Below are positions 22,828 through 45,890 of a DNA stretch of 64,000 nucleotides, one piece after another; the first letter of the stretch is position 1; the number at the start of each line of letters is the position of its first letter. Made by a program: the position numbers and the translations under genes. The stretch covers positions 512,001-576,000 of the forward strand of contig CAWIXE010000002.1 in NCBI GenBank assembly GCA_963840035.1, read 5' to 3'. The notes below the pieces were generated by a model. It ran no database searches and was not told where the DNA came from. It saw only the letters and a program-made list of their open reading frames with translations. The stretch is from a candidate division FCPU426 bacterium (GTDB taxonomy: Bacteria > Oederibacteriota > PGYV01 > Palsa-1178).

Positions 22828-23274
22828 ATGGAAGGACAGCTAAGCGTAGTTGAAATTCAAAAGTTAATACCACACAGGTTCCCGTTCCTGTTAGTCGACA
22901 GGGTGCTTGAGATAAAAGACGGGGAATCCATAACGGCGATTAAGAATGTCACGATGAATGAATGGTTCTTTCAGGGCCATTTCCCCGGTGCCCCGGTCAT
23001 GCCGGGCGTGCTCATTGTGGAAGCCATGGCGCAGACAGGCGGGATACTCATGGCTAAAAAACTCTCAAACGCCGAGGCGCCCAAGGTGGTATATTTCATG
23101 ACGATCAACAATGTAAAATTCAGGCAGCCGGTTACGCCGGGCGATACATTGAAATTTGTAGTCACCATGACCAAACTGAAAGGCACGATAGGGACTCTGC
23201 ACGGGGAAACTTTCGTCGGCGAGAAGAAAGTGGCCGAAGCCGATATGATGGCCATGATAGCGGACGCACAGTAA
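22828..23274 (+). CDS. fabZ: 3-hydroxyacyl-ACP dehydratase
   Basis: IPHRFPFLLVDRV, FQGHFPGAPVMPGVLIVEAMAQ. Confidence 0.97.
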   Translation: MEGQLSVVEIQKLIPHRFPFLLVDRVLEIKDGESITAIKNVTMNEWFFQGHFPGAPVMPGVLIVEAMAQTGGILMAKKLSNAEAPKVVYFMTINNVKFRQPVTPGDTLKFVVTMTKLKGTIGTLHGETFVGEKKVAEADMMAMIADAQ

Positions 23275-23338
23275 GTTCGAAGTTCGGAGGGTAGGGTTCG
23301 AAGTTTGAACTTCGAACCCCGAACTTCACCCTTCGAAC
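23274..23338. repeat. Inverted pair of heptamer arrays (AGTTCGR family)
   Basis: agttcga agttcgg agggtag ggttcga agtttga / acttcga accccga acttcac ccttcga. Confidence 0.85.
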
Positions 23339-23355
23339 GAACACAAGGAGATTGT

Positions 23356-24126
23356 ATGAGCATCCACCCTACAGCCATAGTTTCACCAAAGGCAAAGCTC
23401 GGCGCTGATGTTACAGTTGGGGCTTTTGCCATTATAGATGATGATGTAATAATCGGAGACAAATGCGTCATAGGGCCGCGCGCGCACATAGAGTTTACTG
23501 AAATGGGCGCTAATAATTTTATCGGCGAAGGATCCATGATAGGGGCTGCGCCCCAGGACCTGAAATATAAAAATGAGCGTTCGTTTGTAAAAATAGGCAG
23601 CAATAATGTTTTCAGGGAATATGTTTCCATACACAGGGCCACGCATGAAGGCGAGTCTACGGTAATAGGCGACTCCAATTTTTTTCTTACTATGGCGCAT
23701 GTCGCGCACGACTGCAAGGTCGGAAACAGGGTGGTTCTTATTAACAATGTGGGTATGTCAGGGCATGTGACTGTTCATGACGGCGCGGTGATTTCCGGTT
23801 ATACCCTAATACACCAGCATGCCAGGATCGGCAGCTACGTCATGGCGGGTGGCGGCACTAAAATAGTCAAAGATGTGCCCCCTTTTATGATGATAGACGG
23901 AAACCCGGCGGCAATACACGGGCTTAACAAGCTGGGGCTGAAAAGGAATGGGTTCTCGCCTGAGCGCATAAAAATAATTGAGGACATGTACGCCATATTC
24001 ATAAGGGATAAGAACCTTCTTTTTGCGGAAGCGGTAAAAAAGATAGAGGATACAATACCAAAGAATGATGATGTTAATTATTTTATTGATTTTATAAAGA
24101 ACTCCAAAAGGGGCATTGAAAGGTGA
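23356..24126 (+). CDS. lpxA: Acyl-ACP--UDP-N-acetylglucosamine O-acyltransferase
   Basis: IHPTAIV, PQDLKY, REYVSIHR, HVAHDC; aaggag RBS before ATG 23356. Confidence 0.95.
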   Translation: MSIHPTAIVSPKAKLGADVTVGAFAIIDDDVIIGDKCVIGPRAHIEFTEMGANNFIGEGSMIGAAPQDLKYKNERSFVKIGSNNVFREYVSIHRATHEGESTVIGDSNFFLTMAHVAHDCKVGNRVVLINNVGMSGHVTVHDGAVISGYTLIHQHARIGSYVMAGGGTKIVKDVPPFMMIDGNPAAIHGLNKLGLKRNGFSPERIKIIEDMYAIFIRDKNLLFAEAVKKIEDTIPKNDDVNYFIDFIKNSKRGIER

Positions 24127-24933
24127 AATATAAGAAAATCGCTTTAATAGCCGGCGGCGGCGACCTTCCGCTTATTTTTTTGCGCAACGCGCAGAAAGCC
24201 GGGCAGGAAGTCCTTGTCCTTGAGATTCAGGGGGAAGGCAACCCCGGCATCACACGCTATCCTTTTAAAAAAGTCAGGATAAACATAACACACCTGGAAG
24301 AGATAATTAACACTACAAAACAGGAAAAGATAAAACACATCATGTTCCTGGGTTATGTGCGGCCGCAGCGCCTTTTGAAGGACATTATTTTCGACGAGAA
24401 GGACCAGGACAACCTTCTTAAACCTCATGGATAAGAGGCCGAAGGCGCTCATGGAATCAGCCATTAATGAATTTAAAAAAGACGGGATAGAAGCCATACC
24501 TTCCACTTACCTCATGGATGAAGTGCTGGCAGGCCCGGGTTTTTTGACGCGGATTAAACCGGACTTAAAAGAGCTCAAGGCGGGCATAGACATTACGCGC
24601 GCTCTGGCGGGGCTTGACGTTGGCCAGACCACTGTGGTGTGTTCAGGCATGATATGGGCGGCGGAAGCCATGGAAGGCACGGATAACTGCATTAAGCGCG
24701 GCGGCAGGCTCGCGAAAAAGGGTTTTACCGTCATTAAAATGGCAAGGCCAAAGCAGGATTTGAGGTATGACGTTCCTGCGGTGGGGCTTAAGACGCTCAA
24801 ACTTATAAAATCACTCGGCGGCCGCGGGATAGTAGTGGAAGCAGGGAAGACTTTTTTACTTAACAAAGATGAGCTTTTAAGGTATGCTGATACCCATAAT
24901 TTATTCATATACGGCTGGAGGAAAAGCAAATGA
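24123..24933 (+). CDS. lpxI: UDP-2,3-diacylglucosamine pyrophosphatase LpxI, split by a one-base insertion near 24399
   Basis: IALIAGGGDLP in the first frame; DVGQT, EAMEGTD, KMARPKQDLRYDVP in the second. Confidence 0.88.
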
Positions 24934-26048
24934 TACCCATATCAAAACCGAACCTGGATGAGAAAGAAAAAGAAGCGGTACAGGCAGTACTTAATTCCGG
25001 GATAATAGCGTCAGGCCCGAAGGTGAAAGAATTTGAAGCGGCATTTGCCGCCTATACTTTTTCCGACTATACCGGGGCAAAACACGCGATTGCGGTTTCA
25101 AACGGCACCTGTTCACTGCATACCTGCCTTGTAATGAATGGCATTGGCAAAGGCGACAGGGTAATAACCTCGCCATTTACATTTATAGCGACTGGAAACT
25201 CCATCATTCACGCCGGGGCTGAACCGGTATTTGCGGATATTTGTGAAGGTTCTTTCAATATAGACCCGGACAGGATTGAAGCAATGTTGAAAAAGGATTT
25301 TTTTAAAAAAATAAAAGCGATCATGGTAGTTCATATTTACGGCCAGGTTTGCGAGATGGACCGTATAATGGCAATCGCGAAGAAATATGGCGTTAAGGTA
25401 ATAGAGGACGCGGCGCAGGCGCATGGCGCGAAATTCAAGGGACAAAACGCCGGCACATTTGCGGACGGCGGTTCGTTTTCCATGTACGCCACAAAGAATA
25501 TTACGACCGCAGAAGGCGGCGTGGTTACGACTAATGACGATAAAGCCGCGGAGATCGCGCGCAGTTTCATAAACCACGGATCGGAAAAAATATATTACCA
25601 CACAAGGCTCGGTTACAATTACAGAATGACAGATATCGAAGCGGCCATCGGGATTGTGCAGTTGGCCAAGCTAGACGGTTTTAACATTAAACGCAGGAAG
25701 AACGCCGAAATTCTTAAAAAGCACCTTTCAAAATTTGATTTCATAACTGCCCCGCCGGAAGGCAAGGATAATTTCCATATTTACCATCAGTTTACCATAA
25801 GGGTTAAAGGCGGAAAAAGGGACGCGCTTTTAAAGCACCTTTCTGACAGCGGCGTGGGGGCTAAAGTGTTCTACCCGATACCGCTGCATAAACAACCGTA
25901 TTACCTGAATGATGTTCTTAAAAAGAACATTACACTGCCTGTATCTGAAGAAGCGGCAGCTCAGGTAATAAGCCTGCCGGTGCATCCGGGCTTAACGGAT
26001 GCGGAAATGACAACAATTAAAGGCGCTTTTGACAGCTTTAAGATCTAA
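24930..26048 (+). CDS. DegT/DnrJ/EryC1/StrS PLP aminotransferase (possibly GnnB-like)
   Basis: AVSNGT, IEDAAQAHGA, SMYATKNITTAEGG, GYNYRM. Confidence 0.9.
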   Translation: MIPISKPNLDEKEKEAVQAVLNSGIIASGPKVKEFEAAFAAYTFSDYTGAKHAIAVSNGTCSLHTCLVMNGIGKGDRVITSPFTFIATGNSIIHAGAEPVFADICEGSFNIDPDRIEAMLKKDFFKKIKAIMVVHIYGQVCEMDRIMAIAKKYGVKVIEDAAQAHGAKFKGQNAGTFADGGSFSMYATKNITTAEGGVVTTNDDKAAEIARSFINHGSEKIYYHTRLGYNYRMTDIEAAIGIVQLAKLDGFNIKRRKNAEILKKHLSKFDFITAPPEGKDNFHIYHQFTIRVKGGKRDALLKHLSDSGVGAKVFYPIPLHKQPYYLNDVLKKNITLPVSEEAAAQVISLPVHPGLTDAEMTTIKGAFDSFKI

Positions 26049-26077
26049 TCACTGATTACAAATGGCTGATTACTAAT
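26046..26077. repeat. Short degenerate heptamer array
   Basis: taatcac tgattac aaatggc tgattac taat, starting at the stop codon. Confidence 0.5.
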
Positions 26078-26098
26078 AAAAAACATAGGAGTTTTTAA

Positions 26099-29000
26099 TT
26101 GAAACTTAAAGAATTACACCTGTTCGGATTCAAGTCGTTTGCCGACAAGACAAGCCTTGAATTCGGACACGATATTACAATAGTTGTCGGCCCGAACGGT
26201 TCCGGAAAATCCAACGTCTTTGACGCCATAAGATGGGTGTTGGGAGAGCAGAGCGCAAAACAGCTCCGCGGCGGAAAGATGGAAGACGTCATATTCATCG
26301 GCTCGGATTCCAGGAAGACACTGGGTATGGCCGAAGTAACCATTGTCATGGATAACACAGACAAGACCATTAACCTGCCTTATACCGACGTAAAAGTCAC
26401 CAGGCGGCTTTACCGCTCCGGCGAATCTGAGTATTCAATTAACGACCAGCAGGTGCGCTTAAAGGACATAGTTGAGATATTTATGGATACAGGCGTAGGC
26501 CTTGATTCATATTCCATCATTTCACAGGGCGAAGTTGACAGGATTATAAATGCCAAGCCCGTGGAAAGAAGGGAAATATTTGAGGAAGCGGCAGGCATTA
26601 CCAAATATATTAAAAAGAGGGACGAAGCCTTAAGGAAACTCGAGGCTACGGAGCAGAACATGCTCCGCATAAACGACATATTAGTAGAGGTAAAAAGGCA
26701 GGCGGCGGTGCTGGAGCGCCAGGCAAAAAAAGCGGAGCAGTATAAAGCCCTCAAAATGGAATGCAGCGACATGGAAATCCGCATGCATAAAAAAGACGTA
26801 AAAGAATATAAAATAAAGCATAACAATCTTGAGGCACAGAGGCTTGAAATAGACAAAAAGATAGAGGCGGAAGAGGCGGGCCTGTCAAGCTTTGAGAAGT
26901 CCTTTGAGGATATGAAACTTAAAGGAACTGATATGGAACGTATGATCGCGGAAAAACGCGAAAAATGGGTCATAAAACAGGAAGAGATAAAGAGGCTTGA
27001 AGACAGCCTGAAGTACTTATCCGAGAGGCACACAGAGCTTTTATCACGCATTGAATCATTGAAAAATGAGAATGTGGAGAATGTCGGCAAGATAGAGTCC
27101 GTCAAGGTGGATATCGAAGGAAAAAACAGGTCAATTGCGGAAAAGGAAACAGTTGTAAAGGACAGGGAAGCGCAGCTTGAGAACCTGAACAAGAGGTATG
27201 AATCATTTACGGTTGATTTTGAAGGGGCAAAAAAGGCGAGGGATGAAAAACAGGATAAGGCCGGGCTTTTAAATAATGAGCTTAACGGGTTAAAAGGAAG
27301 GATAGTTGAGCTTGACCTTAATATTAAAAATATGGACGAGCAGCTTGTAAAGATAGCCGCTGAGAAAAAGGACGCGGAAGACAAACTTCACAGGACGGAT
27401 ATTGAGCTTGAATCCATAAGCGAAAACAGGGGACTAAAAGAAGAGGAAATTAAGGGAATAAAGGACCGGGAGGAAGAACTTCTCAAGGAGAAAATAAAGA
27501 GAAAGACCTCTTTTGTCACAACTGAAGAAACTTTAAAAGACCTCGGTTTTGTCATAGGCAAGCTTGAGTCGCGCCAGAACTTTTTAAAACAGATGCACCA
27601 GCGCATGGAAGGATACGGCGAGATAGTAAGGAAAGTACTGACTGAATACAAACTCCAGCTTGATGACGACGCTAAGGGCTCGCTTGTGGATGTCGTGGCT
27701 AACCTTATTGCCGTGGAAAAACCCTACGAGCGCGCCGTAGAAAGCACGCTTGCGGGACTGCTCCAGACAGTCTTCGTCCGCAATGAAAAAATGATTGAGG
27801 AAATATTTTCGCTCTATGAGCATGAAAAAGGCGAGATAAGCTTCATAAATTCTCAGAACATGAAAGTTAATCCCGCGGCTGTAATGGCGCGCTGGAAGGA
27901 AATGGTAAAGCATAAGAACATAACCGCGTACCTTCCGGAACAGGTTCAGGTAGAGGATGGCAATGAGGCCATAAAGCTCCTGTTCCACAATATCTTTGTG
28001 GTTGAGAGCCTTGAGAAAGCCAGGGAAGTCTTAAACGACGTCAGAAGGGACGAGCAGTATTACCTTTTAACGCAGAACGGCGAACTCATATCCAATTTCA
28101 GCATTTATACCAAGGGCGAGGGCTTAGCCGGGGAAGGATTGCTCTCAAGGGAAAGGGAAATAGAGGAAATAGCCTCCGAAATAGGGACGGCCCGCGGCAA
28201 ATACGCGTCCGTGGAAGACGAGAAGAATTTTCAGTCGATAAAAATAGCTTCGCTTGAAAAAGAGATAGAAAACCTGTCGATTACATATCACGCCCAGTAC
28301 GTGGAAGTTATCAAGGATGACGAGCGCATCAAGCAGAAAAATGAGGACAGGGAACGCCATATGGCAAGCATAGTCAGGATAGAAGAACAGGCTGTTGCGA
28401 TAGCCTCTGAAAGAACGGGTTTCACCACGGGAAGGGAAGCGCTCTCCCTTGAGGAAAAAAGGATGCTTGATTCCATTGAGGAGTCAAGGCTGGGTATTGA
28501 GGCGTCAAAGCTGGACATCCAGGCAAAAGAGGATAATTTAAACCAGGAAAAGGCTTTAATAGACGATAAAAAAGTTGAAATACTGACATTAAAGAACGAA
28601 TATGACATGGATATAAACAACAAGTCCATGCTTGAAAGCAGGCTTAAGGAAGTCGAGGAAAATTACAGGAATACCGGGCTTGAGATAGAAGGCTTAAATG
28701 AAAAGGTGAGGATGTCAGAGGATGAAAGCAAAGCTAATGACGCGAAGATAAATGAACTAAAAACCACCCTTATACTGGACGAACAGTCGCTGGAAACATC
28801 AAAAAAGGAACACGAAGAATTCAGGGTTCAGCTTAACACGCTCGAAGATGACATAAAAAAGATGTCAAAGACCAGGGATAAGCTTAAAGACGAGCAGTAT
28901 GACATAAAGGTGAATTTAAGCGAAATAGCCATACAGATAAAAAATATATATGAAAAAATGAACGAGGATTTCAAGATTGCGCCAAGCGACGAGGATGTTT

Positions 29001-29830
29001 ATTCCGTAGAGATACCCGAGGAAGAGTATAAGGAACTGACGCTGAAGGTGACCGAGTATAAGGAAAAGATAGACAAACTCGGCGTTATTAACCTGGTGGC
29101 CATAGAGGAATACAATGACCTTAAATCAAGGAACGAACATTTACAGACGCAGTATGACGACCTGAATACTGCCAGGGATAATCTGAAAAAGATCATTAAA
29201 AAGGCCAATGAAGAATCGAAAGAACTCTTCAATAAGGCTTTTGACGCCATAAAAATACAGTTTGCCGATGTGTTCAAGAAGATGTTTAACGGCGGAGAAG
29301 CGGACCTTGTGCTTTCAGACAAGGATAACATGCTTGAATCCGGCATAGACATCATAGCCAGGCCGCCCGGAAAAAAACTCCAGAACATATCGCTTTTATC
29401 CGGCGGAGAAAAAGCCATCACGGCCATATCACTGCTTTTCGCGCTGTTTTTGACAAAGGCCAGCCCGTTCTGCGTTATGGACGAGATAGACGCGCCGTTA
29501 GATGATATCAATGTCACAAGGTTTACAAACCTGGTAAAAAGTTTCAAAAGGACTCAGTTCATTATCATATCCCATAACAAGCTGACTATGGAAATCGGCG
29601 ACGTATTATACGGGGTATCCATGGAAAAAGCGGGCGTATCCCAGATAATATCCATTAAACTCGACAGGGACAAGGAAAAACTGGCAAAATCCCTGGCAAG
29701 CGACGGCAAGTCGGCGGCTTTAAAGGAAAGCGAAGAAAAGGCAAAAGCAAAAAAAGAAATAGAAGATGCTGAAGCGGAAGAAAACGCCAAAGCCGCGCTG
29801 GAAGGAGAGCCAGGGGATGGAGAAAAATAG
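26099..29830 (+). CDS. smc: Chromosome segregation protein SMC
   Basis: GFKSF, Walker A GPNGSGKS, coiled coils, LSGGE signature, DEIDAPLD; TTG start after aggag. Confidence 0.96.
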   Translation: MKLKELHLFGFKSFADKTSLEFGHDITIVVGPNGSGKSNVFDAIRWVLGEQSAKQLRGGKMEDVIFIGSDSRKTLGMAEVTIVMDNTDKTINLPYTDVKVTRRLYRSGESEYSINDQQVRLKDIVEIFMDTGVGLDSYSIISQGEVDRIINAKPVERREIFEEAAGITKYIKKRDEALRKLEATEQNMLRINDILVEVKRQAAVLERQAKKAEQYKALKMECSDMEIRMHKKDVKEYKIKHNNLEAQRLEIDKKIEAEEAGLSSFEKSFEDMKLKGTDMERMIAEKREKWVIKQEEIKRLEDSLKYLSERHTELLSRIESLKNENVENVGKIESVKVDIEGKNRSIAEKETVVKDREAQLENLNKRYESFTVDFEGAKKARDEKQDKAGLLNNELNGLKGRIVELDLNIKNMDEQLVKIAAEKKDAEDKLHRTDIELESISENRGLKEEEIKGIKDREEELLKEKIKRKTSFVTTEETLKDLGFVIGKLESRQNFLKQMHQRMEGYGEIVRKVLTEYKLQLDDDAKGSLVDVVANLIAVEKPYERAVESTLAGLLQTVFVRNEKMIEEIFSLYEHEKGEISFINSQNMKVNPAAVMARWKEMVKHKNITAYLPEQVQVEDGNEAIKLLFHNIFVVESLEKAREVLNDVRRDEQYYLLTQNGELISNFSIYTKGEGLAGEGLLSREREIEEIASEIGTARGKYASVEDEKNFQSIKIASLEKEIENLSITYHAQYVEVIKDDERIKQKNEDRERHMASIVRIEEQAVAIASERTGFTTGREALSLEEKRMLDSIEESRLGIEASKLDIQAKEDNLNQEKALIDDKKVEILTLKNEYDMDINNKSMLESRLKEVEENYRNTGLEIEGLNEKVRMSEDESKANDAKINELKTTLILDEQSLETSKKEHEEFRVQLNTLEDDIKKMSKTRDKLKDEQYDIKVNLSEIAIQIKNIYEKMNEDFKIAPSDEDVYSVEIPEEEYKELTLKVTEYKEKIDKLGVINLVAIEEYNDLKSRNEHLQTQYDDLNTARDNLKKIIKKANEESKELFNKAFDAIKIQFADVFKKMFNGGEADLVLSDKDNMLESGIDIIARPPGKKLQNISLLSGGEKAITAISLLFALFLTKASPFCVMDEIDAPLDDINVTRFTNLVKSFKRTQFIIISHNKLTMEIGDVLYGVSMEKAGVSQIISIKLDRDKEKLAKSLASDGKSAALKESEEKAKAKKEIEDAEAEENAKAALEGEPGDGEK

Positions 29831-30683: not shown

Positions 30684-30684
30684 C

Positions 30685-30759
30685 AACTGAAAACTTGAAG
30701 CTGAAAAGTGAAAGTTGTGACAGAACCAGCTTTCAGTTTTCAATTTTAAATTTTAAGCT
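30685..30759. repeat. Inverted pair of heptamer arrays (ARYTGAA family)
   Basis: aactgaa aacttga agctgaa aagtgaa / accagct ttcagtt ttcaatt ttaaatt ttaagct. Confidence 0.75.
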
Positions 30760-30770
30760 CAAGGAGTAAC

Positions 30771-32471
30771 ATGAACTGGCAGTATGCTGAAGAAAAGAAC
30801 ATAGACCCCATACTGAAGGCCGAACTAAAGGACAAGCTCCAGCTTCCTGATTATATTGTCACGGCCTTTATTAACCGCGGTATTGATTCATTTGACCGCG
30901 CCAGGGAAGTCTTTGAGATAGACAGCGCGCCGCTTTATCCGCCTTATCTTTTTGAGGATATGGAAAAAGCAGTATCAAGGATAGAAAAGGCCGTTAAATC
31001 AAATGAAAAGATAGTAATATACGGCGATTATGACGTGGATGGAGTGACCGCCATAGTGGTTCTGTTCCTTTTCTTTAAAAACTTTCTGAAATACACAAAT
31101 ATAGATTATTACATTCCCCACAGGCAGGACGAAGGTTACGGCCTGAATATCGACGCGCTGACAGCCATAAAAGCCGCGGGAGCAGGCCTTATTATTTCGG
31201 TGGATTGCGGCATATCGGCCAAAAAAGAAGTGGAATTCTGTTCGGTTAACAATATGGATATCATTATAACAGACCATCACATACCTGAAGGCGAAACTAC
31301 GCCTGATAAAGCATTTGCTATAATCAACCCGAAATTATCCAAAAAATACCCGGAGAGAGAACTATCTGGCGCAGGGGTGGCGTATAAACTCCTTTGCGCG
31401 CTTGCCGACAGGTTCAAGATAGACATTAAAAATGAATTCCTTGATTTTGTGGCTCTTGGGACTGTGGCGGATATTGTTCCGCTTACATATGAGAACAGGA
31501 TACTGGCGCGCAGGGGTTTTAAACAGATAGAAAAAACCACAAATATTGGGCTGAAGAAGCTTAAGGAAGTGGCGGGAATAAAGACGGACGCGCGCATATC
31601 GACATACCACGTGGGATTTATCCTCGGCCCCAGGATCAACGCCGCAGGCAGACTGGAGCACGCTAAAAAGGCGGTGGAACTTTTTGTCTCGGATGACGCG
31701 GAACTTGTGGAAACCATAGCGCGCGAGCTTAATGAGACAAACGAAGAGCGCAAAAGCGTCATGAATAAAACACACGAAGAAGCGGTTAAAATGTTAAAAG
31801 ACGGTTATAACCCGGAAGAGGATTTTGTCATAATATTATATGATTCACTGTGGAACGCGGGAATAGTGGGGTTGGTAGCTTCAAAAGTGGTAAGGTCCTT
31901 TAACAGGCCCGCATTTATTCTGACAAAAAGCGATGATGGGCTTATTCATGGCAGCGCCAGAAGCGTGCATTCTGTAAATATTTTTGAGGCAATCAAATCA
32001 GCCCATAGCCACCTGGAGCGCTACGGCGGGCATAAGCTTGCCGCCGGCATCACCATGAAAGAGGCCAATTTAAACGGTTTTAAGGGCGCGGTTAACGCAT
32101 ACCTTAAGAAGACTTTTAAAAAAGAGGATTTTGAGCCGGTATTAAAGATTGACTGCATGATAAACGAACCGTTAAGCCTGCGGGATATAAAGATATTTGA
32201 CAAGCTCCAGCCGTGGGGAGAAGGCAACCCCAAGCCTGTTTTTTCGTTAAATGAAGTGGAAGTAAGGGAAGTAAAACTGATGAAAAGCAACACGATGAAA
32301 TTTTACGGAAAGGTTAAGGACAAATTCTATAATTTCCTGCTGTTCGGATATACCGAAGAACAGGCGGATGACATCAAACCGGGACATATATTTGACGTGG
32401 CATTTACGCCTACCATAAATGTATGGAAGGACGAGGAATCGCTTATTCTGGAAGTGCAGGATATTAAATAG
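30771..32471 (+). CDS. recJ: Single-stranded DNA exonuclease RecJ
   Basis: YGDYDVDG, VDCG, TDHH, GPRINAAGR, GGH motifs. Confidence 0.96.
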   Translation: MNWQYAEEKNIDPILKAELKDKLQLPDYIVTAFINRGIDSFDRAREVFEIDSAPLYPPYLFEDMEKAVSRIEKAVKSNEKIVIYGDYDVDGVTAIVVLFLFFKNFLKYTNIDYYIPHRQDEGYGLNIDALTAIKAAGAGLIISVDCGISAKKEVEFCSVNNMDIIITDHHIPEGETTPDKAFAIINPKLSKKYPERELSGAGVAYKLLCALADRFKIDIKNEFLDFVALGTVADIVPLTYENRILARRGFKQIEKTTNIGLKKLKEVAGIKTDARISTYHVGFILGPRINAAGRLEHAKKAVELFVSDDAELVETIARELNETNEERKSVMNKTHEEAVKMLKDGYNPEEDFVIILYDSLWNAGIVGLVASKVVRSFNRPAFILTKSDDGLIHGSARSVHSVNIFEAIKSAHSHLERYGGHKLAAGITMKEANLNGFKGAVNAYLKKTFKKEDFEPVLKIDCMINEPLSLRDIKIFDKLQPWGEGNPKPVFSLNEVEVREVKLMKSNTMKFYGKVKDKFYNFLLFGYTEEQADDIKPGHIFDVAFTPTINVWKDEESLILEVQDIK

Positions 32472-32558
32472 TGGCGAGTGATGTGTGATATGTGATAAGT
32501 GAGGGCTTAAAACCGGATATTGAAATTCACTTTTCACATAGCACGCGCCACCCGGCAC
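32471..32558. repeat. Inverted pair of heptamer arrays (GTGNNNN family), no gene inside
   Basis: gtggcga gtgatgt gtgatat gtgataa gtgaggg / aattcac ttttcac atagcac gcgccac ccggcac. Confidence 0.8.
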
Positions 32559-32585
32559 AAAACATGATAAAAACGGAGGTGTTAC

Positions 32586-33700: not shown

Positions 33701-33726
33701 GTTGTTATTGATTGGTTCTAGTTTTC

Positions 33727-33904
33727 GTAGGGGCGAGCCGGTGGCTCGCCCGGCTTTTGACCGGTCCAAACCAGGATCTAAAGCCGGGCGAGCCACCGGC
33801 TCGCCCCTACGAGGGCAAAGCATTACAGAACAAAGCCAGGCTGGATTTGTCTTGTTTTCGCAGGAGCGAGTCCTGCTTCGCTGGACATGGCCGGTGGCTC
33901 GCCC
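33727..33904. repeat. Three REPs (forward, reverse, interrupted forward)
   Basis: 33727-33751, 33786-33810 (reverse) and 33860-33904 carrying a 20-bp insert. Confidence 0.88.
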
Positions 33905-33941
33905 GGGTTTAGATTTAGAACAAAGATATAGAGGGGTCTAT

Positions 33942-34508
33942 ATGGAAAACAAGGGAAAAATGCCGGACCGCAGGTCTGTCCGTTTGCGTGGTTATGATTA
34001 CTCTCAGGCCGGGGCGTATTATGTCACGGTTTGTGTTGAAAGCCGCAGGTGTGTTTTATCAATGATTGATAACGCGGAAAGCAACCTTAATGACTACGGG
34101 GAAGCTGTAAGGGATGAAATATTGAAAACACCGCAAATCAGAACAAACATTATAATCGATGAATTTGTTATCATGCCGAACCACTTCCACTTAATCATAA
34201 TAATTAACTCTGAAAAAGGCGTCATACTGCCCGGTGTTATTAATAGTTATTCGCCCGAAAAGATGCCGTTTGAGCTTAATAAAGACTCGCTTGGCGCGGT
34301 AATGGCGCAAATTAAATCAATAACAACCAAGAAGATACGAAAACTTGGCTTAAAGGATTTTGAATGGCAGAGAGGATATTATGAACACGTTGTTAGGGAT
34401 GAAGAGGATTTGATGGTTAAAAAGGAGTATATAGTTAACAATCCACTACAGTGGGAGCTGGATGATTACAATCCGCATAATAAAAAGACAAAGGCAGAAA
34501 ACCCTTAA
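33942..34508 (+). mobile_element. REP-associated tyrosine transposase (RAYT, Y1/HUH family)
   Basis: RRSVRLRGYDYSQAGAYYVTVC, HUH motif MPNHFHLI, WQRGYYEHVVR, YIVNNP; REPs on both sides; upstream ORF extension is translated REP DNA. Confidence 0.92.
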
Positions 34509-34523
34509 AACAAACCAAAGGCC

Positions 34524-34632
34524 GGGCGAGCCACCGGCTCGCCCCTACGAAAACAAAACTTGGCAAAGCAAGGCAAAACTAAGTAAGGGTTGATTTGTCT
34601 TGTCTTCGTAGGGGCGAGCCGGTGGCTCGCCC
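34524..34632. repeat. Inverted REP pair downstream of RAYT
   Basis: Reverse REP 34524-34548 and forward REP 34608-34632. Confidence 0.9.
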
Positions 34633-34645
34633 GGTTTTAGATTTA

Positions 34646-35906: not shown

Positions 35907-35908
35907 TC

Positions 35909-37568: not shown

Positions 37569-37597
37569 TTGACATGGTATGGGGGGTTCTGTATAAT
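37569..37597 (+). promoter_or_regulatory. Consensus sigma70 promoter for the yceD-rpmF-plsX-fab operon
   Basis: TTGACA-17 nt-TATAAT. Confidence 0.85.
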
Positions 37598-37634
37598 TTA
37601 ACCTCGATTATCTAAAGAGCTGAGGTTATTTGAA

Positions 37635-38132: not shown

Positions 38133-38149
38133 ACCAGGAGGTAAGTAAA

Positions 38150-38335
38150 TTGGCAAATTTAACAAGAAAAACATCAAAGTCAAAATCAAGAAGCAGGAGG
38201 GCCGCCAACCAGAAGTTGAGGCAGAGCCTTAATCTCTCGGACTGCCCGAACTGCCACCAGAAAAAATTACCGCACAAAGTCTGCGGAAACTGCGGTTTTT
38301 ATGACGGCAGGGACATCCTTAAAAAGGCCGACTAA
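38150..38335 (+). CDS. rpmF: 50S ribosomal protein L32
   Basis: RKTSKSKSRSRRA, CPNC...PHKVCGNCGFYDGR; aggaggt RBS, TTG start. Confidence 0.95.
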   Translation: MANLTRKTSKSKSRSRRAANQKLRQSLNLSDCPNCHQKKLPHKVCGNCGFYDGRDILKKAD

Positions 38336-38368
38336 GACAAAACTTAACAATCTAAATCCGGAGGCATA

Positions 38369-39382
38369 ATGAGAATAGTCCTTGACGCTATGGGGAGTGA
38401 TAATGCCCCTCATGTTGAAATAGACGGGGCGCTGCAGGCGGTAAAAGAATTTTCTGATATTACTGTGGTGCTTGTCGGAAAAAAAGACGTGCTGGAACCT
38501 TTGCTTAAAAGCAAAGGCGATGCCGCATCCTTAAAAAGGATAGAAATCGTCAATGCCGATGAAGTTGTCACCATGTCGGACCACCCGGCAGAGGCTTTTA
38601 AAACAAAAAAGAATTCATCAATCGCGGTATCTGCCGCGCTCTTGAAGGAAAATAAAGCTGACGCGCTCGTGTCAGCCGGCAACACAGGCTCTGTAGTGGT
38701 ACACTCACTGCTTATTATAGGAAGGATACCCGGAGTTTCCAGGCCTGCTATACTTATCCCGATGCCCAACGCAAAGGGCTTTGGCGCGCTTTTAGACGCG
38801 GGCGGCAATGTGGACTGCAAGCCAGCACACCTGGTTCAGTTCGCGTTAATGGGAATACTTTATGCCAAACACATCCTGAAGATAGATAATCCTTCTGTTG
38901 GAATGGTGTCAGTGGGTGAAGAAGAGGAAAAAGGAAATGAACTCACCAACGAAACCAACGAGCTTTTCAAGACATCAGGACTGAACTATAAGGGCCATGT
39001 GGAGGGTAAGGACATCGTAAACGCAGTCACTGATGTTGCGGTATGCGACGGGTTTGTGGGAAACGTTATTTTAAAGTTCGGTGAAGGCCTCTCTGAGTTC
39101 CTGTTTAACGGCATAAAGGATGGCATAAAAAACGGGGGCATTCTTGCCATGATAGGCGGCATGCTTTTGAAGCCTGTTTTCAGCAAAATGAAGAAAAAAT
39201 TCAGTTACGACGAATACGGCGGAGCGCCGCTTATAGGCATAAAAAAACCTGTAATAATAACCCACGGCAGGGCCAATGTAAAGGCGATTAAAAACTCGAT
39301 CAGAGTAGCCGCGGAGTTCATCAAGGACCACATAAATGAAGAAATAGAAGAGGGAATAAAAGTCTTAGGAGGAGAGAAGTGA
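38369..39382 (+). CDS. plsX: Phosphate acyltransferase PlsX
   Basis: LDAMGSD, SAGNTG, CDGFVGNVILK, YGGAPL, HG. Confidence 0.96.
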   Translation: MRIVLDAMGSDNAPHVEIDGALQAVKEFSDITVVLVGKKDVLEPLLKSKGDAASLKRIEIVNADEVVTMSDHPAEAFKTKKNSSIAVSAALLKENKADALVSAGNTGSVVVHSLLIIGRIPGVSRPAILIPMPNAKGFGALLDAGGNVDCKPAHLVQFALMGILYAKHILKIDNPSVGMVSVGEEEEKGNELTNETNELFKTSGLNYKGHVEGKDIVNAVTDVAVCDGFVGNVILKFGEGLSEFLFNGIKDGIKNGGILAMIGGMLLKPVFSKMKKKFSYDEYGGAPLIGIKKPVIITHGRANVKAIKNSIRVAAEFIKDHINEEIEEGIKVLGGEK

Positions 39383-40359
39383 GCATAAAAGCGGGAATAC
39401 TCGGGTGCGGTTATTATGTGCCTGAAAGAATAATGACCAATTTTGAACTTGAGAAAATCGTTGATACATCCGACGAATGGATAAGAACCAGGACGGGTAT
39501 AGAGCAGAGGCGCATAGCTGCCGAAGGCGAATGCACGTCAGATATGGCTTTAAAAGCGGCTGAGCGCGCCATCAAGGACGCCGGCATTAATAAGGATGAG
39601 ATTGACCTCGTAGTTATACCGACTATCTGTCCGGATTACGCGTGGCCGGCTACGGCATGTATCACAACTGCAAAACTCGGATTGAAAAACGTGCCGGCTT
39701 TTGACGTTTCAGCCGCGTGCTCGGGTTTCATATACGGGCTGACAGTGGCCAGGTCCATGGTTGAGTCAGGGCTTTATAAAAGGGTCCTGCTTATAGCGGC
39801 CGAGAAATTTTCCACATACCTTGACTGGACAGACAGGAACACCTGCGTTTTAATGGGCGACGGTGCCGGAGCCATGGTAATAGGCCCCAGCGAGACCAGC
39901 CAGATAATGTCAACATATCTTAATTCCGACGGAAGCCATCCTGAATATCTTTGCCAGCCCGGAGGCGGATCTGTTATGCCTTTATCCCAGAAAGTGCTGG
40001 ATGAAAAGCAGAACTTCATGCACATGAACGGCAAGGAAATATATGTAAACGCCGTTGAGAAGATGCCGGAAGCCCTTGATAAGGCTATGGCGCTGGCGGG
40101 AGTCACCGCGGATCAGGTGGATTTTATGATATTCCACCAGGCAAACATAAGGATAATCCAGTACATAGCTAAAAAATTCAACGTACCTGATGAAAAAAAT
40201 ATAATAAACATACAGCGTTACGGCAACACTTCAGCCGCGACCATCCCGATAGCGTTCGCGGAAGCGTATGAAGCGGGGAAGATAAAAAGGGGCCACACAG
40301 TAGCATTCTCCGCTTTCGGCGGGGGATTGACGTGGGGCGGAGCGGTTGTAAAGTTCTAA
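39379..40359 (+). CDS. fabH: 3-oxoacyl-ACP synthase III
   Basis: DTSDEWIRTRTGI, AACSGF, HQAN, GNTSAA, GGGLTWG. Confidence 0.97.
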   Translation: MSIKAGILGCGYYVPERIMTNFELEKIVDTSDEWIRTRTGIEQRRIAAEGECTSDMALKAAERAIKDAGINKDEIDLVVIPTICPDYAWPATACITTAKLGLKNVPAFDVSAACSGFIYGLTVARSMVESGLYKRVLLIAAEKFSTYLDWTDRNTCVLMGDGAGAMVIGPSETSQIMSTYLNSDGSHPEYLCQPGGGSVMPLSQKVLDEKQNFMHMNGKEIYVNAVEKMPEALDKAMALAGVTADQVDFMIFHQANIRIIQYIAKKFNVPDEKNIINIQRYGNTSAATIPIAFAEAYEAGKIKRGHTVAFSAFGGGLTWGGAVVKF

Positions 40360-40363
40360 AAAT

Positions 40364-40440
40364 GTGATAAGTGATATGTGCTAAGTGGTATGTGAAAGAT
40401 GAAGCGGTACACATATCACATACCACACACCACATAGCAC
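40364..40440. repeat. Inverted pair of heptamer arrays (GTGNTAN family), no gene inside
   Basis: gtgataa gtgatat gtgctaa gtggtat gtgaaag / atatcac ataccac acaccac atagcac. Confidence 0.88.
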
Positions 40441-40464
40441 GAATTAATTTTTAAAGGAGTTTTT

Positions 40465-41400
40465 ATGAGCATCGCACTTGTTTTCCCCGGCCAGGGCGCG
40501 CAGTACGTGGGCATGGGTTTTGATTTCTGCGAGGGCAATGAAAGGGCGCACGCGATTTTTGCGGCGGCCGAAGCCGCGCTCCGGAGCAAACTTGATATCC
40601 GTTTAAAAGATGTCATGTTCATCGGCCCGGAAGAGGAATTAAAGAAGACTGATTATACGCAGCCCGCGATTTTTACCATGAGCTGCGCCATATATGAGGC
40701 ATTAAAGGACAGGTTCGCCGGAAAAGTGGCTTACACGGCAGGGCACAGCCTTGGCGAGTACAGCGCGCTTTACGCGGCAGGGGCGTTTTCATTTGAAGAC
40801 GGCATCAAGCTCGTCAGCCGCAGGGGCGCTCTTATGCAGGAAGCCTCAGTTAAGAATAAAGGCGGCATGGCAGCGGTGCTCGGGCTTGATGACGCAAAGA
40901 TTAAAGACCTTTGTGATAAGGCTGGGGCAGCGGGATATATAACGGCAGCAAACCTGAACTCCCCGGGACAGGTGGTAGTATCAGGAAGTATTGAAGGAAT
41001 AGACGCCGGAGAGGCCATCGCAAAGGAACTCGGCGCGAAAAGGTATATTAAACTAGCTGTAGCCGGAGCGTTCCATTCAAAGTTAATGCAGAGCGCGGCA
41101 GACAGCCTGAAAACAGAGATATCCGGATTTGGAATTAAAGACGCGGCCATACCCGTTATTTCAAACTTCCTGGCAGGCGAAGTAAAGACCTCCGGGCAGA
41201 TTCAGGAAGCCCTTATTAACCAGATTACAGGTTCGGTACGCTGGGTCGAGTCAGTCCAGTATATGATATCAAAGGGCGTTGATACATTCGTTGAAATAGG
41301 CCCGGGATGCGTGCTCTCAGGCCTTATAAAGAAGATAGACAGGAATGTAAAGGCTTTTAACGTAGATAAGCTTACAGACGTGGATAAGCTGACAGTTTAA
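40465..41400 (+). CDS. fabD: Malonyl-CoA:ACP transacylase
   Basis: FPGQGAQ, GHSLGEY, AFHS. Confidence 0.97.
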   Translation: MSIALVFPGQGAQYVGMGFDFCEGNERAHAIFAAAEAALRSKLDIRLKDVMFIGPEEELKKTDYTQPAIFTMSCAIYEALKDRFAGKVAYTAGHSLGEYSALYAAGAFSFEDGIKLVSRRGALMQEASVKNKGGMAAVLGLDDAKIKDLCDKAGAAGYITAANLNSPGQVVVSGSIEGIDAGEAIAKELGAKRYIKLAVAGAFHSKLMQSAADSLKTEISGFGIKDAAIPVISNFLAGEVKTSGQIQEALINQITGSVRWVESVQYMISKGVDTFVEIGPGCVLSGLIKKIDRNVKAFNVDKLTDVDKLTV

Positions 41401-41401
41401 C

Positions 41402-41436
41402 CCGGAATCCAGAATCTAGAATATAGAATCCGGAAT
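41402..41436. repeat. One-sided heptamer array (NNRGAAT)
   Basis: ccggaat ccagaat ctagaat atagaat ccggaat, right after the fabD stop. Confidence 0.8.
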
Positions 41437-41453
41437 AAATTTTGGAGGTAATC

Positions 41454-42197
41454 ATGGGATTAGTTAGCGGTAAAGTAGCTTTAGTTACAGGCGGGGCGCA
41501 GGGTATTGGCGAGGCCATATCCATGACGCTCGCAAAAGAGGGCGCATCTGTAGCCATTCTCGACGTAAACCTTGAAAAAGCGCAGGAAACAGCGGCAAAC
41601 ATTAAAAAACTCGGGGTCGATTCCGAGGCGTTCAAATGTGACGTTTCTAACACAGCCGACGTTGAAGCAACAGTGGAAAAAGTGGTTGACAGGTTTAAAA
41701 AGATTGATATACTTGTCAACAATGCGGGCATCACAAGGGACAACCTGTTAGTCAGGATGACCGAGCAGGAATGGGACCTTGTAATAGCCATTAATTTAAA
41801 GGGCACTTTTAACTTTACGCAGAAGGTTGGCAAGTTAATGATGAAGCAGAGATGGGGTTCGATAATTAACATTTCTTCGGTTATCGGCCTCATGGGAAAT
41901 GCCGGACAGACCAATTACGCGGCTACAAAAGCCGGCGTTATCGGTATAACCAAATCTGTGGCCAAGGAACTTGGCGGACGTAATGTCCGCGTGAACGCCA
42001 TATGCCCGGGATACATCCAGACGGCTATGACGGATAAGCTCACTGAAGAGGTAAAGGCAAAGATGATCGAGTTGATACCGGCTAAAAAGATGGGAACGCC
42101 CCAGGACGTCGCGAACGCGGCGCTGTTTTTGGCTTCGGACCTTTCGGCATATACGACGGGCGAGACCATCAGAGTAGACGGCGGAATGGCGATGTAG
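41454..42197 (+). CDS. fabG: 3-oxoacyl-ACP reductase
   Basis: TGGAQGIG, NNAGITRD, YAATK. Confidence 0.97.
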   Translation: MGLVSGKVALVTGGAQGIGEAISMTLAKEGASVAILDVNLEKAQETAANIKKLGVDSEAFKCDVSNTADVEATVEKVVDRFKKIDILVNNAGITRDNLLVRMTEQEWDLVIAINLKGTFNFTQKVGKLMMKQRWGSIINISSVIGLMGNAGQTNYAATKAGVIGITKSVAKELGGRNVRVNAICPGYIQTAMTDKLTEEVKAKMIELIPAKKMGTPQDVANAALFLASDLSAYTTGETIRVDGGMAM

Positions 42198-42409
42198 CAG
42201 ATCGTAGCTGAGCCAAGCGCTTAAGCGCGCAGGCGAGGCGTACGAGATGCTATACCCGCTCAAGTCCGAGGAGCTTGCGACGAGGACAAGCGGTATAATA
42301 TATAATTACGCAGCAGACGTCGGACTACAAGCAGCGCTTTGCGCTGAAGAATATTAAAACAAATTAAAAACAAAAAAAGAAAGAAAACAAAATTCAGGAG
42401 GTTTTAGAA

Positions 42410-42649
42410 ATGGCAGACAAAACAGTAGAAGAAAGAGTAAAAGACGTAGTTGTAGCGCAGCTTGGCGTGGATCCTTCGGAAGCAAAACCGGAAGCTTCGT
42501 TTGTTGATGACCTTGGAGCCGATTCGCTCGATACAGTTGAGCTTGTTATGGCACTTGAAGAAGAATTCGGCCTGGAAATAGCCGATGAAGACGCCGAAAA
42601 GATCAAAACAGTCGGCGAAACGATTGAATTCGTTAAGTCAAAGATATAA
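42410..42649 (+). CDS. acpP: Acyl carrier protein
   Basis: [20 protein letters not shown]. Confidence 0.98.
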
Positions 42650-42680
42650 GGCTTAACAAAATCCAAATCAGAGGTTTCGC

Positions 42681-43925
42681 ATGAAGAATAAAAGAGTAGT
42701 AATTACCGGCATGGGCGTGATTACGCCCGTTGGTAACAATGTTAATGATACGTGGGCAGCCCTTTTAGAAGGCAAAAACGGCATAGGGCCGATAACGCAC
42801 TTTGACACTGCGAAATACAAGACCAGGATTGCCGGTACCATAAAGAACTTTGACGCCACAGAGGTTATGGATAAAAAGGAAATAAGGCGCACTCCGCTTT
42901 ATATCCAGCTGGGCTTAAAGGCGAGCAAAGAAGCCATTGAGCAGTCGGGGATACTGAATTTTCCCGGATTAAATAAGGACCGCGTAGCGGTGCTTATGGG
43001 CTCGGGCGTAGGCGGCATCAATGTAACGGAAGAGCAGCAGACCGTGCTCCTTGAAAAAGGACCGGACAGGATCTCACCGTTCCTTATCGCCATGCTTATA
43101 CCCAACATGGCGTCGGCATTTGTATCCATGAAGTACGGTTTCAGGGGGCCAAACATGTGCATAGTCACGGCATGCGCCACCGGAACCCATTCCATAGGCG
43201 AAGCCGCGAATATTATTCAGAGAGGCGACGCTGATGTGGCAATTGCAGGCGGTACTGAAGCCGCGATTACACCGCTCGGTTTAGCCGGATTCCAGGCAGC
43301 GAGAAGCTTATCGGAAAGAAATGACGACCCGGAGCACGCGTCCAGGCCTTTTGACAAAGACCGCGACGGGTTTGTCATGGCTGACGGTTCGGGCATGATG
43401 GTACTCGAGTCACTTGAACACGCACAGGCGCGCGGCGCGAAGATTCTTGCCGAGTACGCCGGTTATGGCGCTTCAGATGACGCTTACCACATGACAGCGC
43501 CTTCGGCTGACGGCGGCGGAGCCATACTGTGCATGAAAAACGCGTTGAATGACGCGGGCATCGGTGTCAACGACGTAAGCTATATCAACGCCCATGGTAC
43601 TTCCACTGAACTGAACGATAAGACAGAGTCACTGGCTGTGAGGACCCTTTTTGGGGCGCAGGCTTATAAGGTGCCGATATCATCGACAAAATCGATGACC
43701 GGACACATGCTCGGCGGAACAGGCGCTGTGGAAGCTATCATCTGCGCCATGTCCTGCATGAATAACGTTATCCATCCCACCAGGAACTTTGTTCAGGGCG
43801 GGGAAGGCTGCGACCTGGATTACGTGCCAAATACGAAAAGATCGCTTGAGGTAAACTACGCATTATCAAACTCTTTCGGTTTCGGGGGCCACAACGGCTC
43901 GATAATAATAAAGAAGTTCAGGTAA
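42681..43925 (+). CDS. fabF: 3-oxoacyl-ACP synthase II
   Basis: TACATG, NAHGTST, KSMTGH, SFGFGGHN. Confidence 0.97.
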   Translation: MKNKRVVITGMGVITPVGNNVNDTWAALLEGKNGIGPITHFDTAKYKTRIAGTIKNFDATEVMDKKEIRRTPLYIQLGLKASKEAIEQSGILNFPGLNKDRVAVLMGSGVGGINVTEEQQTVLLEKGPDRISPFLIAMLIPNMASAFVSMKYGFRGPNMCIVTACATGTHSIGEAANIIQRGDADVAIAGGTEAAITPLGLAGFQAARSLSERNDDPEHASRPFDKDRDGFVMADGSGMMVLESLEHAQARGAKILAEYAGYGASDDAYHMTAPSADGGGAILCMKNALNDAGIGVNDVSYINAHGTSTELNDKTESLAVRTLFGAQAYKVPISSTKSMTGHMLGGTGAVEAIICAMSCMNNVIHPTRNFVQGGEGCDLDYVPNTKRSLEVNYALSNSFGFGGHNGSIIIKKFR

Positions 43926-43939
43926 AAAAGGAAAGTTAC

Positions 43940-44599
43940 ATATTTTCCTACCTGCGTAAAAGCAGGCTGCTGAACTCCAAAGAAGTAAAGCAGGCGCTGA
44001 CACACAAGTCAGTGAATGATTTGCATTACGAAAGGCTTGAGTTCCTGGGTGATTCCATACTCGGGGCCGTGGTAAGCGATTTTCTTTACCATGAGATAAA
44101 ACAGCCTGACGTAGGCGCCATAGCCAAGCTTAAAGGGTACCTTGTAAGCAAAGAGGTGCTTTATAAGATAGGCGCTGAGAACCAGCTGGCCGGCCGTGTC
44201 AACTTAGGTTCGGCATTAAAGGTAAAGGACATCGAGAATAACAAGAAGATAATAAGCGATGTCATAGAGTCCATAATCGGGGCCATTTACCTTTTGAAAG
44301 GCTATCAGGAAGCAAGGAAGTTCATCCTGCATATTTACGAAGAAGAGTTTAAGGACCTTAAGTCCCGTACGGATTTCGGGGATTATAAGTCCGGGCTCCA
44401 GATAAAAGTGCTCGCAACCTCGGGGAAGCTGCCGGAGTATACGGTGGTAAAGTCCGAAGGCCGGGAGCACATAAAGGTTTTCTTTGTGGACGTTGCGGTA
44501 AACGGGGCGGTAATAGGCTCGGGTCAGGGAAAGACCATAAAGGAAGCTGAACAAATGGCGGCGCAGAGGGCCATGGAAAAAATGCTTAAGGAGGAATAA
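43940..44599 (+). CDS. rnc: Ribonuclease III (start uncertain; possibly ATA at 43940)
   Basis: ALTHKS (upstream of GTG 44012), ERLEFLGDS, DVIESIIGA, C-terminal dsRBD. Confidence 0.92.
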   Translation: MFSYLRKSRLLNSKEVKQALTHKSVNDLHYERLEFLGDSILGAVVSDFLYHEIKQPDVGAIAKLKGYLVSKEVLYKIGAENQLAGRVNLGSALKVKDIENNKKIISDVIESIIGAIYLLKGYQEARKFILHIYEEEFKDLKSRTDFGDYKSGLQIKVLATSGKLPEYTVVKSEGREHIKVFFVDVAVNGAVIGSGQGKTIKEAEQMAAQRAMEKMLKEE

Positions 44600-44604
44600 A
44601 AGAA

Positions 44605-45786
44605 ATGAATTATTTTTTATCAGAAGAAGAACAGATGATAGTGGATACATGCAGGGAGCTTGCCCAGAAAAAGATTAAGCCTGTCAGGGAACACTATGAC
44701 GAAGAGGGAATATTTCCCTGGGATATAGTAAAAGAAATGGCGGACCTCGGGCTCTGCGGACTTTACATACCCGAAGCGTACGGCGGCATGGCCACACCGG
44801 CATCAAACGGCAAAGGCATCATGCAGCTCGTGCTCGCGGTTGAAGAACTTTCGAAAGTTTGCGGCGGCATATCGCTTGCCATGGCAGCCACGGCGCTCGG
44901 CACATTCCCGATTCTTTTGGGAGCAACAGAAGCGCAGAAGAAAAAATACCTTCCAGACATAGCCTCGGGCAAAAAACTCGCGGCGTTCGGCCTTACTGAA
45001 GCTGACGCGGGCTCCGACGCCGGCTCCATGAGGACCACAGCCGTTAAAAAAGGCGACAAGTACATATTGAACGGGACAAAGCAGTGGATCACAAACGGCA
45101 GCGAAGCCGAGACCTACACCGTATTTGCCATGACTGACAAGGCAAAAGGCACCAGGGGCTGCTCCTGCTTCATAGTTGAAAAAGGATGGAAAGGCTTCAC
45201 ATTCGGAAAGAAAGAAAACAAGATGGGCATCAGGGCGTCGGCAACGACCGAACTGATTTTCCAGGATTGCGAAGTACCGGCTGAAAACCTGCTCGGCGGA
45301 AAAGAAGGCATGGGCTTCATCCACGCCGTATGGACACTGAACCACTCGAGGCCGGGAGTTGCGGCACAGGCATTGGGTATAGCCGCGGGCGCACTTGACG
45401 AAGCCCTGGCATACACAAGGCAGAGGGAACAGTTCGGTTCCAAGATATCGCAGTTCCAGGCTGTCCAGCATATACTCGCCAATATGGCGGTAGATGTTGA
45501 AGCGGCAAGGGCCCTCCTGTATCAGGTATCGCGTTCAGTTGACGCGGGCGCCGCTGATTTCGCTAAGGACTCGGCCATGGCAAAGTATTACGCTTCCGAA
45601 GTGGCCATGAGGGTCACGACAAACGCGGTCCAGCTTTTCGGCGGATACGGATACATGAAAGAGTACCCGGTAGAGAAGATGATGAGGGACGCGAAGATAA
45701 CCCAGATATATGAAGGAACAAGCCAGATACAGTTAAATGAGATAGCCGCGAAAATGATCAAGGAATCGGCGGCAAAGAAGAAATAA
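44605..45786 (+). CDS. Acyl-CoA dehydrogenase (butyryl-CoA dehydrogenase-like)
   Basis: FGLTEADAGSD, LNGTKQWITNG, GGYGY, IYEGTSQIQ. Confidence 0.93.
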   Translation: MNYFLSEEEQMIVDTCRELAQKKIKPVREHYDEEGIFPWDIVKEMADLGLCGLYIPEAYGGMATPASNGKGIMQLVLAVEELSKVCGGISLAMAATALGTFPILLGATEAQKKKYLPDIASGKKLAAFGLTEADAGSDAGSMRTTAVKKGDKYILNGTKQWITNGSEAETYTVFAMTDKAKGTRGCSCFIVEKGWKGFTFGKKENKMGIRASATTELIFQDCEVPAENLLGGKEGMGFIHAVWTLNHSRPGVAAQALGIAAGALDEALAYTRQREQFGSKISQFQAVQHILANMAVDVEAARALLYQVSRSVDAGAADFAKDSAMAKYYASEVAMRVTTNAVQLFGGYGYMKEYPVEKMMRDAKITQIYEGTSQIQLNEIAAKMIKESAAKKK

Positions 45787-45790
45787 AGAC

Positions 45791-45890
45791 AGTTCGGAGT
45801 TCGGAGGGTAGGGTTCGGAGTTCGGTCCGTTAGATCGAACTCCGAACTCCGAACTCCGAACCCCGAACTTCGAACTTCGAACTTCGAACT
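45791..45890. repeat. Inverted pair of heptamer arrays (AGTTCGR family)
   Basis: agttcgg agttcgg agggtag ggttcgg agttcgg / eight YCGAACY units at 45835-45890. Confidence 0.9.

Follow-up and report, generated by a model that had tools for sequence, protein, structure and literature searches.

Two hairpins built of tandem 7-nt units lie 22.5 kb apart in a 64,000-nt stretch of a candidate division FCPU426 genome (assembly GCA_963840035.1, contig CAWIXE010000002.1, positions 512,001 to 576,000; hereafter the window), and their left arms share an identical 20-mer. How did the same string come to stand between two different gene pairs? A sequence-only reading of the window had proposed that the arrays were copied between the loci or from a common template, and had taken this as support for true mobility. 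We addressed the question across the genome under study (G000; 3.46 Mb, 98% complete; contigs C1, C2 and C3) and its relatives (other G numbers); positions without a contig prefix refer to the window. Both hairpins belong to a family of 31 loci, named RGTTCGR after its unit. A common template for this family is supported because the AGGGT variant is missing from the array-rich relative G002, the outer end of the arm anchors the order of its units, and polarity is fixed. The explanation we prefer, which we hold to be evenly poised between right and wrong, is that the two hairpins are non-autonomous elements resembling hairpin-forming doublets of repetitive extragenic palindromic sequences (REPs; the doublets, REPINs). 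They would have been seeded from a cassette carrying a four-helix-bundle gene, copied with a short-range bias, and tolerated via a predicted stem.

The shared 20-mer and its family

The 20-mer, AGTTCGGAGGGTAGGGTTCG, was located by exact matching at 23281-23300 and 45798-45817 on the plus strand, and a search of both strands of the whole genome returned these two copies only. The coordinates, and the reverse-oriented units that follow at each junction, agree with the earlier reading. The match widens to 30 identical positions in 32 nt. Hairpin A occupies the fabZ-lpxA junction. Its left G-rich arm (23274..23308, plus strand) comprises five units, with AGGGTAG third, and begins on the final stop-codon base of fabZ (22828..23274, plus strand). 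Its right arm (23305..23339, minus strand) comprises five units including AGGGTGA, leaves no real loop, and stops 7 nt upstream of the ribosome-binding motif of lpxA (23356..24126, plus strand). Hairpin B occupies the junction between an acyl-CoA dehydrogenase family gene (44605..45786, plus strand), whose stop codon lies 4 nt upstream, and etfB, encoding the electron transfer flavoprotein beta subunit (45913..46701, plus strand). Its left G-rich arm (45791..45825, plus strand) again has five units with AGGGTAG third, followed by a 9-nt loop (45826..45834) not common to other loci and a right arm of eight units without AGGGT (45835..45890, minus strand), which stops 11 nt upstream of the etfB ribosome-binding motif. 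Predicted folding energies of hairpins A and B were -37 and -60.4 kcal/mol, with z of -4.5 and -6.0 against shuffles, respectively. The AGGGT units also make a GGAGG Shine-Dalgarno-like motif in left arms (23281-23293) and its pyrimidine-rich complement in right arms (23326-23334), near the real ribosome-binding site; this motif is missing in G002 arrays, so it is unlikely to be general.

A phase-locked search recovered 56 arms of the family at the 31 loci, and a stricter arm search returned 49 arms in the genome versus none in a 1.7-Mb order-4 Markov simulation. Counted from the outer end, the first unit is [A/C]GTTCGR, positions 2 and 3 hold AGGGTRR or AGTTCGG, position 4 favours GGTTCGR, and position 5 is AGTTCRA. 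The description of AGGGTAG as a deviant unit did not hold: AGGGT-type units are present in 23 of the 31 loci, and AGGGTAG occurs 11 times in nine loci, 10 times at unit position 3. All 20 paired loci point inward. The G-rich arm starts no more than 10 nt from a stop codon in 26 of the 31 loci, and a ribosome-binding motif lies 5-12 nt past the C-rich arm in 16 of the 20 paired loci. Right arms range from 4 to 11 units. Left and right arms of one locus were no better than swapped arms in similarity (P = 0.20) or pairing (P = 0.31), and no left-right covariation was detected in the family; a covariation signal in families 0, 1 and 4 was biased by the hairpin definition and was not used.

Several further arrays were noted. 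At C1:665152-665450, between divergent genes, an RGTTCGR element has been amplified as a 58-bp tandem unit in five copies. GTTGTTC arrays reach great length at C1:245189-245542 (about 50 units) and C1:708575-708905 (about 40 units), and the second abuts an RGTTCGR arm. On a replichore assignment of contigs inferred from GC skew, 23 of the 31 RGTTCGR loci fall on one replichore, compared with 47.5% of all heptamer sites (P = 0.002).

Whether the 20-mer singles out the window pair was judged from 52 of the 56 arms, four local tandem copies having been dropped. At least 20 nt, and up to 31 nt, were held in common by 102 of 1304 between-locus arm pairs (7.8%). A unit shuffle that preserves position predicts 85.6 ± 11.4 such pairs (P = 0.08), and for pairs including AGGGTAG it predicts 7.9 ± 3.6, with 11 observed (P = 0.23). 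With a free shuffle the figure was only 47.6 pairs, which would have been misleading. The 20-mer as proof of pairwise copying was rejected by the position-preserving shuffle.

Direct copying of one window left arm from the other is nevertheless conceivable as a single event compatible with the preferred explanation, and we consider it rather doubtful. The 30 identical positions in 32 favour it, as does the fact that the 23274 arm has the 45791 arm as its nearest neighbour (2 mismatches in 28), at a distance inside the range of excess similarity described below. Along 280 kb, AGGGTAG also occupies a run of six consecutive loci to which both window loci belong (P = 0.0017; P = 0.0068 conditional on the two), and none of 11 other units gave a comparable run. 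However, the relation is not reciprocal. The 45791 arm is closest to C1:1076496 (1 mismatch in 28), ties with four other arms at 2 mismatches, and agrees exactly with C2:721109 over a longer stretch, 22 nt. The two loci also differ in their right arms and loops. Since a 20-nt match is common at family level and the 45791 arm is closer elsewhere, the 20-mer does not prove copying between these loci. In the preferred explanation it stems from the common vocabulary of the family, perhaps with local copying contributing, and a single 20-mer carries little weight. The proposal of copying from a template thus stands for the family, with its fixed unit order and a block variant at 23 loci that G002 lacks, and fails for the pair where it leans on the 20-mer alone.

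Genome-wide, G000 contains 575 period-7 runs, 486 of them mostly outside open reading frames (ORFs), whereas periods 4, 5, 8, 10 and 11 give at most 8. It also contains 231 hairpins, with at least 12 families that have four or more members, and polarity is fixed across hairpin pairs (1304 same versus 36 opposite). Such numbers permit tests that are rarely possible elsewhere: distance decay of copying, arms shared without loops, and slots refilled by relatives. Hairpins less than 30 kb apart more often belonged to one family (0.252 versus 0.177, GC-stratified). Same-family pairs 2.5-30 kb apart had 20 nt in common in 33 of 101 cases versus 21.6% expected (P = 0.006).

Orthologous junctions and the four-helix-bundle cassette

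The RGTTCGR pattern matched 54 times in G000, 16 times in G002 and one to three times in five genomes, with no match in 92 of the 99 genomes of the phylum. G002 arrays use AATTCGG as the variant unit and contain AGGGT in 0 of 15 regions. The only array site that G000 and G002 have in common is fabZ-lpxA, and six of nine G002 array sites checked by eye hold a different heptamer family in G000. Among relatives that retain the gene pair, the family was present at fabZ-lpxA in one of 28 and at acyl-CoA dehydrogenase-etfB in none of 22, about five of the latter carrying other heptamers (by eye). The junctions purL-purD, purD-purE and atpG-atpD gave the same pattern of empty or differently filled sites, the exception being G004, with a lone RGTTCGR right arm at atpG-atpD. 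The three g4 genomes had no heptamer arms at the junctions read. The relatives are too distant for exact boundaries between filled and empty sites. At the 20 paired loci no target-site duplication was found: comparison of the 14-nt flanks gave longest repeats of 0-6 nt, with no fixed length.

One RGTTCGR hairpin (C2:186227-186306) lies in frame inside the YgiQ radical-SAM gene (ygiQ, L385), which carries a second in-frame hairpin of a different heptamer family at C2:185780-185857. The ygiQ loop is short in nine of 13 parsed relatives (18 matched) and has other heptamer inserts in three; both loops are, in relatives, either short or filled by yet other heptamers. Judged from sequence, the in-frame copy is the best evidence of a probable gain by insertion. 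Together with the empty orthologous sites it supports the mobility that had been proposed.

A scan of GTDB for the AGGGT pattern gave 31 single matches, about seven of them array-like by eye, and no four-helix-bundle gene was found within 900 bp of these matches. GAAGTTC and GAAGGGT units are mixed within one array in unrelated bacteria (L081, L082, L095, L099, L102, L107, L109), a TTC/GGT pairing that recurs outside the lineage.

The sequence-only reading had further anticipated a copy flanking an ORF that could be the autonomous form, and this was borne out in part. A gene for a 147-amino-acid PF05635 four-helix-bundle protein (P0001) is bracketed at C1:786107-786684 by arms of the RGTTCGR family, two left and one right. 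The cassette is a single ORF with PF05635 only, and a catalytic transposase, recombinase or reverse transcriptase was not found in it. P0001 scored above the curated cut-offs of both families, TIGR02436 and PF05635 (75.2 bits versus 24 and 50.7 versus 33.8), and matched PDB 2RLD (E = 5.6e-12). Its tail is encoded by the right arm of the cassette. The gene stands between pth and a helix-hairpin-helix (comEA-like) gene, and 22 of 22 relatives lack it at the pth-comEA junction. The leader before its ATG resembles the comEA leader of relatives; this candidate boundary was rejected, since the leader is a common ribosome-binding motif (32 matches) and fixes no boundary. A protein search with P0001 gave 552 matches, with 43-54% identity among the 120 listed apart from P0001 itself, and no relative was confirmed in the genome-contig search. 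In the same neighbourhood, Pth of G000 (L265, L266) is 64% identical to that of G011, which is from another family, versus about 46-52% to its own family, and G011 has a stop-interrupted PF05635 gene directly upstream of pth.

G000 has eight TIGR02436 matches. One belongs to a second four-helix-bundle cassette inside the window (7596-8107), where arms of the TGGTAAG/TATGTGG type accompany a TIGR02436 gene (7646-8059) placed between pyrC and carA; the same type forms solo arrays at 32464-32504 and 40357-40436.

Three statistics bear on a link between solo arrays and cassettes. Across 11 relatives with both kinds of data, solo arrays matched the cassette arms of their own genome in eight of 51 cases versus 2.6 expected (P = 0.0015). 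Array density rose with PF05635 count (rho 0.48, P = 0.019). Clustering near the cassette was rejected: six of 30 loci lie within 125 kb of it (P = 0.012), but the three other sizes of interval were not significant.

Weighing the explanations

In the preferred explanation, the arms of the cassette would seed the RGTTCGR family, and copying of arms from a genome-wide template, with short distances favoured, would follow. Avd, a relative of the four-helix-bundle protein, binds nucleic acids. P0001 would bind the units and bring in an enzyme of the host or of an insertion sequence (IS), which would write or overwrite arms and leave no target duplication. Copies would persist at sites where the stem predicted for the RNA can fold out between the stop codon and the ribosome-binding site, or alternatively in a tolerant protein loop. 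Slippage could later alter unit number while loops decay. We infer from the arms and loops either that each arm is written or overwritten on its own or that arms persist as loops decay; some loops contain relics of other heptamer families.

A considerable set of results weighs against this account. The cassette arm ranks only fourth of 52 in centrality and is not clearly a master copy, and a four-helix-bundle remnant was found in no solo loop. G002 has about 16 AGTTCGG sites, yet none of its six TIGR02436 genes has AGTTCGG arms. Among PF05635 genes of the order, 26 could be scored (30 of 83 matches fetched) and only eight of them had inverted arms, and a PF05635 gene was nearby in only two of 80 metagenomic AGTTCGG arrays (of 125 found). 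Without G000, the correlation between array density and PF05635 count drops to rho 0.40 (P = 0.057). Once the largest family is set aside, the excess at 2.5-30 kb loses significance (P = 0.26), and the RGTTCGR family by itself gave no significant result in the Mantel-type test (P = 0.06-0.10), the adjacent-locus test (P = 0.3) or the nearest-neighbour test (P = 0.24). Only seven of 409 pairs having 20 nt of arm in common also had at least 12 nt of loop in common. No catalytic enzyme could be tied to the family: reverse transcriptase PF00078 had no match in the genome, and none of 11 Y1/RAYT-like loci (RAYT, REP-associated tyrosine transposase) carried a heptamer hairpin, the nearest RGTTCGR locus lying at least 6.6 kb off.

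The broader claim, that bacterial heptamer arrays originate from PF05635 cassettes, with each protein recognising its own 7-mer and driving arm-by-arm writing or overwriting at nearby tolerant sites without a classical transposase or target duplication, is a tentative one that we judge unlikely at this stage. If true, intragenomic replicators of a new class would be at work, and several families would be rivals for the same slots at gene junctions. P0001 and its 7-mer form a candidate specificity factor that could be assayed in vitro.

The main rival holds that the hairpins are old, vertically inherited RNA structures at gene junctions, and that gene conversion between loci, more frequent among neighbours, rewrites their units in place. 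Transposition would then play no part, and the four-helix-bundle gene would be a binding partner or a passenger. We regard this as improbable overall, though a serious contender. Relatives have heptamer runs at 22 of 120 junctions filled in G000 versus six of 85 unfilled ones (P = 0.023, with kin not independent), and the different arrays in G000 at six of nine checked G002 sites, the sharing of arms without loops, and the lack of a detectable target duplication all fit it. Xanthomonas repeats, which mostly retain their gene context between species according to the available text of PMC4692102, fit it as well. However, it requires many clean losses, given the g4 genomes without arms, and the in-frame inserts in the two ygiQ loops, of different families, look like independent gains. 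Pairing is no better between the left and right arms of a locus than between swapped arms, and a recurring slot may simply be a tolerant site.

[quoted passage not shown] G000 has eight PF01797 matches, and REPIN arms are likewise better conserved than their spacers in the available text of PMC3116915 and PMC8049555. Three transposase genes (C2:827242-828439, C3:228237-229406 and C2:388084-389217), which we take to be IS30-like, lie between arms of AATTACT- and GAATCTA-type hairpins. This suggests that such hairpins are insertion targets. Against a RAYT or IS origin, RGTTCGR arms occur at none of these three genes, several of the RAYT-like loci without heptamer hairpins have their own GTAG-type REPs, and target duplication was not found. 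GxxExxY (TIGR04256) genes gave no matches. Within the window, a gene named RAYT-like from its sequence type (33942-34508) is flanked by classical GTAG-type REPs (33710-34642); nine copies of these REPs, unrelated to the heptamer arrays, occur in the window (also at 3614, 33023, 48253 and 59740-59915).

Independent origin of the arrays by replication slippage, with convergence making them alike, is very improbable. Unit number does vary among right arms, and AGTTCGG arrays are found in unrelated metagenome contigs, but local slippage cannot produce inverted pairing, a fixed polarity, or a variant block of three bases found at a fixed position in 23 loci. Segmental duplication or assembly artefact, which the sequence-only reading had named as what would undo its inference, is barely conceivable and has no supporting point: the 2-kb flanks of the window loci have at most 11-12 nt in common, flanks were shared in none of the 33 near pairs that match in their arms, neither gene pair is disrupted, and in G002, G003 and G004 a single contig carries lpxA and etfB 20-22 kb apart, so neither process accounts for the match.

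Comparison with known repeat systems

Heptamer arrays occur in excess between bacterial genes; the available text of PMC4692102 and PMC4679880 gives no mechanism for their spread. No paper linking heptamer arrays to PF05635 was found in open-access text. The comparisons below refer to the available text of each source.

The REPIN-RAYT system (Bertels and Rainey 2011, PMC3116915; PMC8049555) resembles the RGTTCGR hairpins in its inverted doublet with conserved arms and a less conserved spacer, and the cassette resembles a RAYT locus in that the gene is flanked by its own type of repeat. In contrast, the arms here are tandem heptamer arrays and not palindromic REPs, the flanked gene is PF05635 and not an HUH tyrosine transposase, similarity between near copies exceeds expectation, and cognate repeats flanking a RAYT (Y1 HUH) gene were not found in G000. 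Prokaryotic MITEs, including Rickettsia palindromic elements (PMC10969869), are similarly small, non-coding and intergenic, with inverted ends and occasional in-frame insertion. The hairpins share filled and empty orthologous sites with them but lack target duplication, a conserved interior and likeness over the whole length, and no matching IS ends were found.

Known relatives of PF05635/TIGR02436 include the 23S ribosomal RNA (rRNA) intervening-sequence protein, the five-bundle Xcc0516 (2GSC) and Avd of diversity-generating retroelements (PMC10053308). Unlike intervening-sequence proteins, P0001 is encoded between pth and a comEA-like gene and not in rRNA; unlike Avd of those retroelements, it has no adjoining reverse transcriptase.

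Closer parallels are found among heptamer repeats. The TAACTGA repeats of Beggiatoaceae (MacGregor 2015, PMC4679880) are also intergenic arrays that end just upstream of start codons and are split by related units. Their positions are strain-specific, and their transmission mechanism is given as not known. The terms 'four helix' and 'intervening' have no occurrences in that text. Nearly all are direct arrays without an inverted partner, unlike the hairpins described here. Closest are the GGGAATC repeats of Xanthomonas, reported together with GGGGA(T/C)T repeats of Nostoc (Rehm et al. 2015, PMC4692102), in a text that reports no association with mobile elements and in which no link to a four-helix bundle was found. 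The layout of the GGGAATC loci is like that of RGTTCGR loci, which likewise have non-coding tandem 7-nt units far above chance, convergent pairs and a G-rich arm after the stop codon. As far as that text goes, the array architecture is already published for Xanthomonas. The RGTTCGR family differs from the Xanthomonas and Nostoc repeats in its unit, which is not a G-quadruplex motif, in combining two unit types in a fixed order, and in sharing one genome with other heptamer families, at least 12 in all.

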